Assembly (NCBI GenBank): GCA_048939995.1
Contig: JBHLOY010000001.1
Coordinates: 64,001 to 128,000 of the forward strand
Origin: Promethearchaeota archaeon
Lineage (GTDB): Archaea; Asgardarchaeota; Lokiarchaeia; Sigyniarchaeales; SOKP01
Direction of reading: 5' to 3'
DNA length: 64,000 nt
Every line of letters begins with the position of its first letter. The stretch's first letter is position 1. Below are positions 12,559-23,468 of this stretch, piece after piece. Made by a program: the position numbers and the translations under genes. A model generated the notes under the pieces. The model saw only the letters and a program-made list of their open reading frames with translations. It was not told where the DNA came from and ran no database searches.

Positions 12559-12873
12559 ATTAGTAAAGTAACACTAAAAAGATATTCAATATCTCAAGGA
12601 AAAGATCCAAAAGATCCAAGAGAAGGCAATTTTTTAGAGATTTGCAATAAAGATTTTAGGAATTTTAAAGAGAAAGACGGAGATCAGATTATAAAACTGT
12701 TAGATAAGTTGATCAAAGCCCGCGAGATTAGAGGCAATAAATTAGAACCATTCAAGCAACAGAAGATCAATTTAATGAATGTAAAACATTTGATTCATGA
12801 GGGCAAAGAAAGAGAGGCTTTTACAAGTTTCTATAGGGCATTTCCATATTGTATGCCATATAGATCTCTCTGA
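12559..12873 (+). CDS. Unannotated 104-aa hypothetical protein with probable ATT start
   Basis: Open frame ISKVTLKRYSISQGKDPKDPREGNFLEICNKDF...AFTSFYRAFPYCMPYRSL*; GGGTGAGA SD directly upstream; fills an otherwise empty gap; not in the ORF track. Confidence 0.6.
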   Translation: MSKVTLKRYSISQGKDPKDPREGNFLEICNKDFRNFKEKDGDQIIKLLDKLIKAREIRGNKLEPFKQQKINLMNVKHLIHEGKEREAFTSFYRAFPYCMPYRSL

Positions 12874-17917: not shown

Positions 17918-18118
17918 TTACTGGAGCCGAGAAAACTTTAATAAATCATCCATTAGATCTACATGGCTAACAATCATTCTGCGACAACAAAACCTCTTAA
18001 TTCCAAGTTGATTAAAAGCATCGTCTGAATTTTCTCCCTTCTCAATAAGTTCAAGATAGGGTTTATATACATGAGCAATAAGTTTCCCGCAAGAAAAACA
18101 TCGAATTGGTATTATTAT
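17918..18118 (-). CDS. rpoN: RNA polymerase subunit N (Rpo10)
   Basis: IIPIRCFSCGK..RFCCRRM. The family starts MIIP, which maps to ATA at 18118 behind an AAGGTGA SD; the ORF track uses TTG 18145. Confidence 0.93.
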   Translation of the reverse strand: MIIPIRCFSCGKLIAHVYKPYLELIEKGENSDDAFNQLGIKRFCCRRMIVSHVDLMDDLLKFSRLQ

Positions 18119-20104: not shown

Positions 20105-21139
20105 TTAGTCTCTCCTCCAAGGAATGGTAATATTATCCATCCGTTCTTTAGGATTAATTATTGTTTCTGAAATTTTTTGCTCTCCACTATTTTTATATTT
20201 TAAAATACCTGTCCATGCGATCATTGCTCCATTATCCCCAGCAAACTTCAATGGAACTACCTCAAATCTGGCATTATGATCATCACTAATAATTTTTATC
20301 ATTTCTTGTAACCTTTTATTTGCTGCTACACCTCCAGTGAGTAAGACTTCTTCCTTTTCTGTGTGAGCAAGAGCTCTCTCTGTGACTTCTGTAAGCATTG
20401 AGAAGGCGGTTTCTTGTAAGGAAAAAGAAATATCTTTTAAGAAATAGTCCTTATTATAATCTTTCGAATCTAAAAGCCGTTTAGCGGCGGTAAATAAACC
20501 GGAAAAGGATAAATCCATTCCTTTAACAATATAAGGCAGAGGAAGGTATTTTTCTGAAGTTCTTGCAAGTTCCTCTATTTTAGGGCCACCTGGATGAGCT
20601 ATACCTGCTTCCCTTGCAAATGAATCAAGTAAGTTACCTATAGGAATATCTAACGTCTCTCCGAAAACTTGATATTTCCCAGATTCATAAGCACTAACTA
20701 TTGTATTTCCACCTGACACATAAAGAGTAAGTGGGTCCTTAATATCACACATTAGTCTTCCGATCTCTATATGTGCAATACAGTGGTTAACTCCAACAAT
20801 GGGTATACCTAGACTCTGACTTAGTAAACGTGCTACAAGGGCTCCTATTTTTAATATAGGCCCAAGACCTGGACTTTGACTAAAAGTGATTAGATCAATA
20901 TCTTTTATCGAACATCTAGCTTGAATTAGAGCCTCATTCAAAACACTCATAAAATTATTTAAATGTTGCTCCCGAACTAATGCAGGATGCAATCCACCTC
21001 TTTTAGGTATAAACGTGTCATTAACTGAACTTAAAACTTGTCCGTCATAATCAACGATTCCAACACCCCATGTGTGAGCAGTAGATTCAATACCTAGGCA
21101 AAGCTTTTTACTTAATTTCATTATAGTCGCCAAATACAT
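20105..21139 (-). CDS. kae1: KEOPS tRNA threonylcarbamoyltransferase Kae1
   Basis: LGIESTAHT, HCIAHIE, LYVSGGNT, GETLD, HPGGP, DNGAMIAW. Confidence 0.96.
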   Translation of the reverse strand: MYLATIMKLSKKLCLGIESTAHTWGVGIVDYDGQVLSSVNDTFIPKRGGLHPALVREQHLNNFMSVLNEALIQARCSIKDIDLITFSQSPGLGPILKIGALVARLLSQSLGIPIVGVNHCIAHIEIGRLMCDIKDPLTLYVSGGNTIVSAYESGKYQVFGETLDIPIGNLLDSFAREAGIAHPGGPKIEELARTSEKYLPLPYIVKGMDLSFSGLFTAAKRLLDSKDYNKDYFLKDISFSLQETAFSMLTEVTERALAHTEKEEVLLTGGVAANKRLQEMIKIISDDHNARFEVVPLKFAGDNGAMIAWTGILKYKNSGEQKISETIINPKERMDNITIPWRRD

Positions 21140-21190
21140 TTATTAGCGAAATTTAGAAAAAATAGATAAAGAGCAAAAGAAAATTATACC

Positions 21191-21412
21191 TTACTCCTTT
21201 GATTTCATACGTTTTCTGGGAGTCCGTCTAGAAGCAACCTTAGCAGCTCCTTTAGTTCCTTTTCTTTTGAATACAGTGTAACCACACTTCCCACAAGAAG
21301 ACCGATCATAATGGTCAGCAAGAAAATAGGCAGGTCCGCATTTAGGACATGTTCTATGAGTTCTAATTAGTTTGTTTCCTTCAATTTTATATAAGTTTGA
21401 TGCATTAGCCAT
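21191..21412 (-). CDS. rps27ae: Ribosomal protein eS31 (S27ae) with basic C-terminal tail and no ubiquitin fusion
   Basis: [25 protein letters not shown]. Confidence 0.95.
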
Positions 21413-21431
21413 AATAATTTCAGTTTATTCA

Positions 21432-21785
21432 TTAATATTCAAATAAATGCTTAAAAGGTTCATTTCTCTTTTTTAATTTATATATTTCTGTCCGTTTTTC
21501 TTTTTCTAAATTCCTTGTTTGAATGAAAAATGGCTCAAAATATTGTAATTCATTAGCATTCTCATATATATGTGCTATACCTATATCATAAGCTGAACCA
21601 AAATGGGTTTTAACATTTCTAATAATTGTTAATTTTTCCTTTGATTTTTTCATACTAGCAATCTTTTTCTTTAATTCTAGCCTGCTTGGAGTTCCTGATC
21701 CGAAATGATCGATTTGAAATTTCACTTCGGTTCTATCAATTAAAGGGTTTTTTTTTTCTTCGATAATTTTAATATCAAATGACAT
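21432..21785 (-). CDS. rps24e: Ribosomal protein eS24 (S24e)
   Basis: NPLIDRTE..H..GTPSR..KTHFG..IY..EP. Confidence 0.92.
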   Translation of the reverse strand: MSFDIKIIEEKKNPLIDRTEVKFQIDHFGSGTPSRLELKKKIASMKKSKEKLTIIRNVKTHFGSAYDIGIAHIYENANELQYFEPFFIQTRNLEKEKRTEIYKLKKRNEPFKHLFEY

Positions 21786-21906
21786 TATGAACCTTTTTTG
21801 ATCAGTTAATTTAAATAATGTTATTAAACATTAAAGAACAATAAGAAATAAAATTTTGTTTTTTAGATATTTTTAATGAAATTTAGAACAAGAATCAATA
21901 TAAGAA

Positions 21907-22494
21907 ATGACTGAAAGAATACATTTACCCGAAAAGGAGAGACACAAATTTACCACACCGTTAGGGAAATTAATTTCTGGTAATAGGTCAGAAACTATTC
22001 CTAAAGTTGAGAAAATTGTTAGAAATTTTTTAGATTCTGGCTTTAAGGTCAATATATACCTTGTAGGAGATATTGTATCTAATGATTTTATTGAAAATAA
22101 CTTTTTGAAGAATTACGTTCGCGTATGTGTTGTTGATGAAAAAACTCAGAGAAATCAAATTATTATTAAATCTCAAGAGCAATTTGAGGAGATAATTGAA
22201 TTGAAGAATCCAAAAGCTACGATCAATAAAGTAAGTTTCAGTCTATTCAAGAAGATTATACTTTCAAAAAGAAAAACTTTAGTAAAAATTATTGAAGGAG
22301 AAGAGGATCTTTTAGTACTCCCACTCATTTTTGAATTAGAATATGACAAAAACTTAAAAAATTTAATATTTTATGGACAACCTCCTATCACAGATGCAAA
22401 GCAACCGATTCCAGAAGGAATAGTGATGGTGGAATTAAATAGGAGAACTAAAAAAGCCGTTAAAAAGTTTTTGTCAATATTGCAAAAAAGCTAA
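21907..22494 (+). CDS. GTP-dependent dephospho-CoA kinase (DUF359 family)
   Basis: PLG, VGDIV, VVDEKTQR, NP..I, GEEDLLVLP, FYGQP..EGIV; located between spt4 and S24e. Confidence 0.88.
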   Translation: MTERIHLPEKERHKFTTPLGKLISGNRSETIPKVEKIVRNFLDSGFKVNIYLVGDIVSNDFIENNFLKNYVRVCVVDEKTQRNQIIIKSQEQFEEIIELKNPKATINKVSFSLFKKIILSKRKTLVKIIEGEEDLLVLPLIFELEYDKNLKNLIFYGQPPITDAKQPIPEGIVMVELNRRTKKAVKKFLSILQKS

Positions 22495-22512
22495 TTTTTT
22501 AGTTTAACCATA

Positions 22513-22704
22513 TTAGCGTACTCTTAATGCATATTTACCAGGAAAATGAATTTTCAAATATTCTGCAAATTTTGACTCTTGAGGTTGTATAATTATAACT
22601 TCTCCGGTAAAATCATCACTTAAACTGTGTGTTTTACATTTAGGGCAAATTTGTTCATTTTTTGTTATTAAGTGACAATTCTTACATGCTCGTTCTTTTG
22701 AAAT
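22513..22704 (-). CDS. spt4: Transcription elongation factor Spt4 (RpoE2); missed by the ORF track, ATT start
   Basis: (I/M)SKERACKNCHLITKNEQICPKCKTHSLSDDFTGEVIIIQPQESKFAEYLKIHFPGKYALRVR*; no ATG/GTG/TTG between the upstream in-frame TGA and the conserved N-terminus. Confidence 0.92.
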   Translation of the reverse strand: MSKERACKNCHLITKNEQICPKCKTHSLSDDFTGEVIIIQPQESKFAEYLKIHFPGKYALRVR

Positions 22705-22718
22705 GATGATACACTTCC

Positions 22719-23306
22719 TTATTTTTCATTATCATCTACCTTCTTTTCCTCTTTTTTCATAAACTCATCATCAATATCTTGTTCTATCCATTCTTCCTTC
22801 CCTAAGAATTTTTGCCTCATAGTCAATCCTAATTTACCACTTCTACCTGTGCCAAGTGAGACAGCAATAATTTTAGACCTTACTACATCATTAACTTCAA
22901 GAATTTTTCCCGTTTCCTTACCTATAAATCGATTTCCCACTTGTTCATATGAAATATAATCATCACAGATTTGAGACACATGTACTAATCCATCTAATGG
23001 GCCTAATCTTATGAAGGCTCCGAAATCAACAACTTCTACAACCTCTCCTTCTACAACTTCAGAGATAACAGGTTTAAAAGCGAGAATTGTAAACTCTACC
23101 TCATGAAATGTGTTAGCGTTTCCAGGGATTATTATTCCAGGCCCAACATCAACAACATCAACAATTGCGATTATGAATCCATAATCTTTGGTGATTATTC
23201 CTTCATAATCCTCAGATAGAATTATACGAGCCGATACTTCCTTAGGTTGGTCAAATAAAAATGGAGGAATCTCAATTTTACCTTGAATTTGAAAGAGTTT
23301 AAAAAT
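22719..23306 (-). CDS. rpoE1: RNA polymerase subunit E' (Rpo7); full gene is 195 aa with ATT start
   Basis: The frame extends upstream of the 86-aa ORF call: (I/M)FKLFQIQGKIEIPP...EVVEGEVVEVVDFGAFIRLGPLDGLVHVSQI...GLTMRQKFLGKEEWI; GGTG SD 7 nt before the ATT. Confidence 0.93.
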   Translation of the reverse strand: MFKLFQIQGKIEIPPFLFDQPKEVSARIILSEDYEGIITKDYGFIIAIVDVVDVGPGIIIPGNANTFHEVEFTILAFKPVISEVVEGEVVEVVDFGAFIRLGPLDGLVHVSQICDDYISYEQVGNRFIGKETGKILEVNDVVRSKIIAVSLGTGRSGKLGLTMRQKFLGKEEWIEQDIDDEFMKKEEKKVDDNEK

Positions 23307-23468
23307 TGTGGGACACCAGATAAAAAGATTAAATATAATTATCCTATAAAATATACCATAAAATTAATAATTTTTGGTTTTCCTCCAAAAAGAGAGAAAT
23401 AAATGCGAATATTTAAACATCACCAAAATACGGGTATAAAATTATTATTTTAAGAAATTATGAGTATT

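Follow-up and report, generated by a model that had tools for sequence, protein, structure and literature searches.

Translation of two adjacent transcription genes, rpoE' (Rpo7) and spt4, very probably begins at ATT codons in this lokiarchaeal genome. Comparison with related genomes and a genome-wide census of start codons support a lineage-wide tolerance of near-cognate starts guided by Shine-Dalgarno (SD) sequences as the apparent cause, rather than a device specific to transcription. Positions are those of the window, i.e., the whole stretch of 64,000 nucleotides that was analysed.

The rpoE' and spt4 reading frames

The rpoE' frame is open on the minus strand from 23363 to a TAA at 22721-22719, and its first in-frame ATG, GTG or TTG is a GTG at codon 110. 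The spt4 frame is open for 70 codons, none of them a methionine codon, GTG or TTG. The initial annotation had described both genes as lacking a canonical start where the protein begins, and the upstream in-frame stops (TAA at 23366-23364 and TGA at 22728-22726) confirm this. It had also placed an ATT at the family methionine position of each, and indeed the ATT at 23306 falls on profile position 1 of rpoE', while the one at 22704 corresponds to an ATG at the same site in relatives of spt4. It had noted an SD-like element just before each ATT; these elements (GGTG and GGAAGTG, respectively) precede the two ATT codons by 7 nt. In the list of ORFs opened by ATG, GTG or TTG, rpoE' is cut to 86 of its 195 residues and spt4 is omitted. 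The features of the locus are as follows.

22719-23306, minus strand: rpoE'/Rpo7 coding sequence, 195 codons plus TAA (NF006333, 217.5 bits)
23304-23306, minus strand: ATT, very probable start codon of rpoE', aligned to profile position 1
23314-23317, minus strand: GGTG, SD core of rpoE', with a spacer of 7 nt to the ATT
23358-23373, minus strand: A/T-rich block AAATTATTAATTTTAT, candidate BRE/TATA element, about 52-67 nt 5' of the rpoE' ATT
23364-23366, minus strand: in-frame TAA closing the rpoE' frame upstream, with 19 codons to the ATT and no ATG, GTG or TTG among them
22513-22704, minus strand: spt4 coding sequence, 63 codons plus TAA (22515-22513)
22702-22704, minus strand: ATT, very probable start codon of spt4, with ATT or ATG at the same site in close relatives
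22712-22719, minus strand: AGGAAGTG, SD-like element of spt4 that overlaps the stop of rpoE', with a spacer of 7 nt to the ATT
22726-22728, minus strand: in-frame TGA upstream of spt4

Read from the ATT, residues 1-181 of the rpoE' product align to positions 1-183 of the 188 of NF006333 (217.5 bits; cut-off, 143), and the match to TIGR00448 is also full-length (181.7 bits; cut-off, 124.2). The product has the domain order of Rpo7, SHS2 followed by S1 (PF03876 [SHS2_Rpb7-N], residues 10-62; PF00575, residues 82-153). The spt4 product matches both Spt4 profiles (NF041664, 76.8 bits with a cut-off of 50; PF06093, 53.4 bits with a cut-off of 25) and retains an intact zinc ribbon with its four cysteines (CKNC...CPKC). 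Its start lies 14 nt past the rpoE' stop. The archaeal cluster rpoE'-spt4-DUF359 (opposite strand)-eS24-eS27ae-kae1 is intact, with its ORFs at 20105-23306, and it recurs in the nearest relative, judging from Pfam labels. The four other genes of the cluster (DUF359, eS24, eS27ae and kae1) have ordinary ATG starts.

The block AAATTATTAATTTTAT upstream of rpoE' is at least 80% conserved in an alignment of 20 upstream regions of the genus. It looks like the promoter of rpoE', which would leave an mRNA leader of about 30 nt bearing the SD. Other putative starts near the two genes were rejected. An out-of-frame ATG 53 nt 5' of rpoE' was weighed both as a start codon and as the donor of a frameshift, but the frame that it opens has only six codons and is unconserved in relatives. 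The GTG that forms part of the rpoE' GGTG belongs to another frame, which ends at a stop; a 1-nt insertion brings it in frame in genome G022 alone. For spt4, ATA at 22722 and ATC at 22710 and 22707 have no SD at a working distance.

Start codons and SD sequences among relatives

We searched 40 related genomes and read the homologous rpoE' codon in each, with 22 readable genomes in the genus. In these, codon 1 is ATT 15 times, ATC three times and ATG four times; in genomes beyond the genus it is ATG, TTG or, once, ATA. In-frame canonical starts 5' of this codon were found in a single genus genome with an AUY (ATT or ATC) start. Two other AUY relatives have an in-frame stop only 1-2 codons before the start codon, which pins the start of rpoE'. 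In a maximum-likelihood protein tree, the four ATG genomes are separate tips within ATT/ATC clades, so that ATT is ancestral to the genus and ATG was regained four times. When codons 2-70, all located 5' of the first canonical start, are compared with those of the two nearest relatives, 24 and 20 synonymous changes are seen, respectively, and no non-synonymous change in either comparison. Such a pattern clearly points to a region that is translated in frame and kept under purifying selection.

Both genes are present in a single copy per genome. The start site of spt4 is ATT in four genomes (G000, the assembly studied here, G010, G021 and G018) and ATG in two (G019 and G013), and it is ATG or TTG in more distant species. 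The site is narrowly delimited in G021, where just CAA-ATT separates an in-frame TAA from the conserved SKDRAC (the family motif being SK(E/D)RAC). The spt4 genes of relatives carry (GA)GGTG at 7-8 nt. The comparison of 5' ends in relatives (ATT or ATC in 18 of 22 genomes for rpoE'; four ATT and two ATG for spt4) is thus in line with the reading of the initial annotation.

The SD of rpoE' varies together with its start codon. The GGTG at positions -11 to -8 is retained in all 16 AUY genus genomes with readable upstream sequence, whereas it is absent in three of the four ATG genomes, replaced by AGCG, AGTG and GGAT. A sister-genus pair shows the same opposition, ATA with GGTG versus ATG with GGTT, and so does rpoN of the window in the genus, ATA behind AAAGGTGAA versus ATG with no GGTG. 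Since the SD has mostly decayed where ATG returned, these five contrasts suggest a trade-off between the strengths of the SD and of the start codon, which would keep output similar. Across the genome, AUN sites carry longer SDs than ATG sites, 18-29% of the former having at least 6 nt versus 12% of the latter (Mann-Whitney test; p = 0.008).

A genome-wide census of AUN and CTG starts

The census covered the whole assembly (3.75 Mb, 38 contigs, 30.5% G+C), in which 3,437 non-overlapping ORFs were picked by codon usage. An in-frame sense codon was eligible if canonical starts were absent both from the stretch back to the upstream stop and from the 15 codons that follow it. The SD cores GGAG, GAGG, AGGT and GGTG were set in one register, and their distance to the codon was scored against a phase-matched background. 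As expected, SD spacing peaked at 6-9 nt for the first ATG, GTG or TTG codons. ATG starts in the genome have a mode of 7 nt, equal to the spacer found before the ATT codons of rpoE' and spt4.

Among sense codons, only ATT, ATA, ATC and CTG showed a sharp peak of SD spacing, at 7-8 nt. The observed and expected numbers at a spacing of 6-9 nt were 48 and 17.7 for ATT, 31 and 13.6 for ATA, 13 and 6.7 for ATC, and 8 and 0.8 for CTG. When pooled, ATT, ATA and ATC gave 92 observed versus 38 expected (p = 9e-14), whereas all the other sense codons together gave 187 versus 227, with a dip at 7 nt. Codons with a mismatch at the middle position (ACG, AAG and AGG) showed no excess at SD spacing in this genome-wide census. 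Under the strict rule, the excess of AUN and CTG codons corresponds to about 61 genes; it rises to about 82 if a canonical start is permitted nearby. The excess of SD-led canonical starts is about 410. By these figures, AUN and CTG serve as the start in about 2% of genes and make up 13-17% of the starts led by an SD.

To these counts we added a scan of 20 AUN/CTG candidates against NCBIfam or Pfam, which gave a family match in 19. In about 15 of the 19, the N-terminus of the family or an essential domain lies 5' of the first canonical start. These genes are listed here by candidate start codon.

ATT: PheRS beta (profile 1-551 matched from residue 1), ABCE1/RLI, an SDR, pterin-4a-carbinolamine dehydratase, an Fe-S/CCG protein
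ATA: aldehyde:ferredoxin oxidoreductase (AOR), an XPD-type helicase, a sulfhydrogenase beta-like subunit, APS kinase
ATC: a CooC/MinD-type ATPase
CTG: HdrA2, a flavodoxin
AUN or CTG: ABC ATPases and small GTPases

The functions of these genes are mutually unrelated. The census and the 19 family checks fit a broad tolerance of SD-driven AUN starts in the lineage, one of the two explanations that the initial annotation had put forward.

An SD at 6-9 nt precedes 8 of the 33 in-frame CTG codons that were eligible. Three CTG starts behind strong SDs belong to HdrA2 (C7:86060-88459), the flavodoxin (C16:15506-15964) and a TusA-like protein (C38:143415-143681); profile 1-774 of HdrA2 is matched from residue 2.

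A 760-kb sample (C1:1000001-1760000) of the closed genome G032, from another family of the order, gave a weak signal, with 4 ATT versus 0.7 expected and 7 AUN codons in all versus 2.4 expected. Start codon of rpoE' in this genome is TTG. AUN starts thus seem to be most frequent in the genus of the assembly studied here, on the basis of a G032 sample that is small. G032 has a similar G+C content (31%) and an AUN signal per megabase that is much weaker, so how often AUN starts are used seems to depend on more than AT pressure.

Initiation mechanism, regulation and known systems

A GGTG-type SD located 7 nt upstream would pair with the 3' end of 16S rRNA and thereby bring the near-cognate AUU to the P site, in which initiator Met-tRNA (CAU) would pair with its first two bases. 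Rpo7 and Spt4 would in that case begin with methionine. Both genes would be normal, expressed and essential, with no special status among the AUU, AUA, AUC and CUG starts that appear to be used genome-wide behind SDs stronger than average. Two published observations count against an AUU start supplying an essential polymerase subunit at the level needed. One study of E. coli gives a range of 0.01-2% of the AUG level for initiation at non-canonical codons (10.1101/063800), and in vitro the aIF1 of S. solfataricus rejects a model mRNA that carries AUU (PMC4705826).

Ribosomes terminating on rpoE' may also aid spt4, 14 nt past the stop. A possible, if somewhat doubtful, extension of this idea is that spt4 is translated mainly by termination-reinitiation, ribosomes ending at the rpoE' TAA and restarting 14 nt further on, which would make the start codon less critical. 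The short gap and the overlap of the spt4 SD with the rpoE' stop agree with it, as does the equally tight arrangement of the two genes in relatives. However, relatives with equal spacing use ATG or TTG, and reinitiation leaves unexplained rpoE' itself, which is the first gene of the unit, as well as many AUN genes that have their own SD. Reinitiation would therefore complement SD-led AUU initiation rather than replace it.

The other explanation in the initial annotation was that the transcription machinery is tuned through aIF1. In this scenario, selection retains the AUU starts so that the output of Rpo7 and Spt4, and also of Rpo10, tracks the start-codon stringency set by aIF1, in the manner of infC and IF3. 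Its appeal comes from the ancestral AUU of rpoE', kept as AUY in 18 of 22 species, from the precedent of infC (PMC4705826) and from a third transcription gene of the window that probably uses ATA.

17918-18118, minus strand: rpoN/Rpo10 (PF01194, 96.7 bits), probable start ATA at 18118-18116, 8 nt behind AAAGGTGAA

The family methionine site of rpoN reads ATG-ATT-ATT-CCx, with no GGTG, in 19 of 23 genus relatives. It reads ATA-ATA-ATA-CCx, 8 nt behind AAAGGTGAA, in G000 (where the last codon is CCA), G010 and G019, and the frame of G019 has no canonical start at all. The rpoN gene of our assembly thus probably starts at ATA, judging from this comparison; an in-frame TTG 11 codons upstream makes the assignment less certain. 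The remaining transcription genes have canonical starts available: GTG/TTG for Spt5, GTG for Rpo4, ATG for Rpo6, TTG for Rpo5 and ATG for Rpo11. A search for Rpo12 with the PF03604 profile gave nothing above the cut-off. The start of Rpo4/RpoF (C11:203519-203845, minus strand) is ambiguous: its sole in-frame canonical start is a GTG within AAGGTGG, and an ATA lies 6 nt behind GGTG. An enrichment of AUN starts drawn from three of eight transcription genes was rejected, given that two of the three had defined the finding. When rpoE' and spt4 are set aside, one of six further transcription genes has an AUN start, which is no evidence of enrichment.

The factor itself adds to the case for regulation. 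In six relatives of the genus, the aIF1 gene opens TGA AGA AAG AAC ATT AAA GAC, with no canonical start. In our assembly, which is 98% complete, neither the profiles PF01253 and TIGR01158 nor tblastn with the proteins of 12 relatives recovered aIF1/SUI1, and it was likewise not found in six other genomes of the genus. The stretch orthologous to the aIF1 neighbourhood of relatives was also not found in the assembly; with the flanks missing too, an assembly gap is likely, rather than loss of the gene. An infC-like feedback acting on aIF1 itself is possible, and a link from it to rpoE' and spt4 would be hypothetical.

Nevertheless, we regard tuning of transcription through aIF1 as improbable. AUN and CTG starts are scattered across unrelated functions (PheRS beta, ABCE1, HdrA2 and AOR, among others), and Spt5, Rpo4, Rpo5, Rpo6 and Rpo11 can start at canonical codons. 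The flips between ATG and AUN in spt4 and rpoN of close species resemble drift buffered by the SD. Slightly less probable still is a complete fidelity-sensing circuit, in which the AUU starts of Rpo7, Spt4 and Rpo10 and that of the genus aIF1 would act together, aIF1 limiting itself along with dispensable or limiting accessory subunits of the polymerase. If true, it would link translation stringency to transcription in an Asgard archaeon, in the way of infC or eIF1.

It is very improbable, with nothing in its favour, that a dedicated decoding device makes the starts cognate, whether an additional initiator tRNA whose anticodon reads AUN or an editing of U to G in the mRNA. Four codons (ATT, ATA, ATC and CTG) are in use and swap with ATG at the same sites, and mismatches are used at the first and third positions and not at the middle one, which is the expectation for a single CAU initiator. 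ARAGORN recovered 20 tRNAs from the assembly, most of which have predicted introns and none of which is a tRNA-Met. Nothing tRNA-like came from a pattern search of the assembly for the anticodon arm of the initiator. The 3' end of 16S rRNA was also not found in the assembly. Least credible of all is an artefact or decay, whether an ATG-to-ATT error of assembly or consensus, pseudogenes, or the production of the S1 half of Rpo7 alone from the GTG at codon 110: nothing beyond the missing canonical start and the 38 contigs of the assembly speaks for it, and it conflicts with ATT or ATC in rpoE' of 18 of 22 independently assembled genomes, with intact single-copy frames that match their profiles over the full length, with strong purifying selection on rpoE' codons 5' of the GTG and with an spt4 frame devoid of any canonical start.

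SD-guided near-cognate initiation, the reading that we prefer, has partial parallels in known systems. ATT, ATC and ATA are among the alternative initiation codons of NCBI translation table 11, and pcnB of E. coli has an AUU start codon. One likeness is with bacterial infC (IF3), an essential or regulatory gene with an AUU behind an SD that is conserved among relatives (PMC4705826). There, however, the discriminator is IF3 and the gene is autoregulated through IF3, whereas here discrimination would fall to the archaeal aIF1/aIF2 and a feedback is only hypothetical. Moreover, infC and pcnB are one or two bacterial genes, versus about 2% of genes here. Archaeal GUG and UUG starts share with the codons described here a single mismatch to the initiator anticodon and SD-led mRNAs. 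Reviews give AUG, GUG and UUG as the start codons of archaea; the mismatch at the third position (AUU, AUA and AUC) or the C at the first position (CUG) is absent from them (PMC7531240, PMC4705826). We found no paper on ATT starts in Asgard archaea or Lokiarchaeota in a literature search.

Near-cognate initiation in eukaryotes takes place under the control of eIF1, the homolog of aIF1, and the aIF1 of the genus has no canonical start. This resembles eIF1, which is autoregulated through a weak start. The two situations differ in that there is no scanning here, the start presumably being placed by SD pairing, and in that ACG, which eukaryotes use as a start, showed no excess. Among known prokaryotes, Asgard archaea are the nearest kin of eukaryotes, and their initiation factors are of the eukaryotic type. 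If about 2% of genes, core polymerase subunits included, indeed start at AUU, AUA, AUC or CUG under the guidance of an SD, the stringency of start selection in this lineage would be looser than reviews state for archaea, with a bearing on the origin of strict AUG selection in eukaryotes.

The initial annotation had also anticipated that such genes are systematically missed, which holds in part. Callers restricted to ATG, GTG and TTG cut these genes, at a practical cost in distorted marker-gene sets, protein families and completeness estimates. On the other hand, in the GenBank entry for the nearest relative (GCA_048940445.1, JBHLON010000021.1) the homologous ATT is already taken as the start of both genes, with products of 198 aa for rpoE' and 63 aa for spt4; homology-guided annotation therefore copes where ATG/GTG/TTG-only callers fail. 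These calls are a product of such annotation and not the description of a phenomenon. Another NCBI record begins rpoE' at an upstream ATC. Within the window, a frame of 104 codons at 12559-12873 (plus strand), with no Pfam family, opens at an ATT behind TAGGGTGAG and fills a gap in the list of canonical ORFs; it could be noise or one more overlooked gene that starts at ATT.
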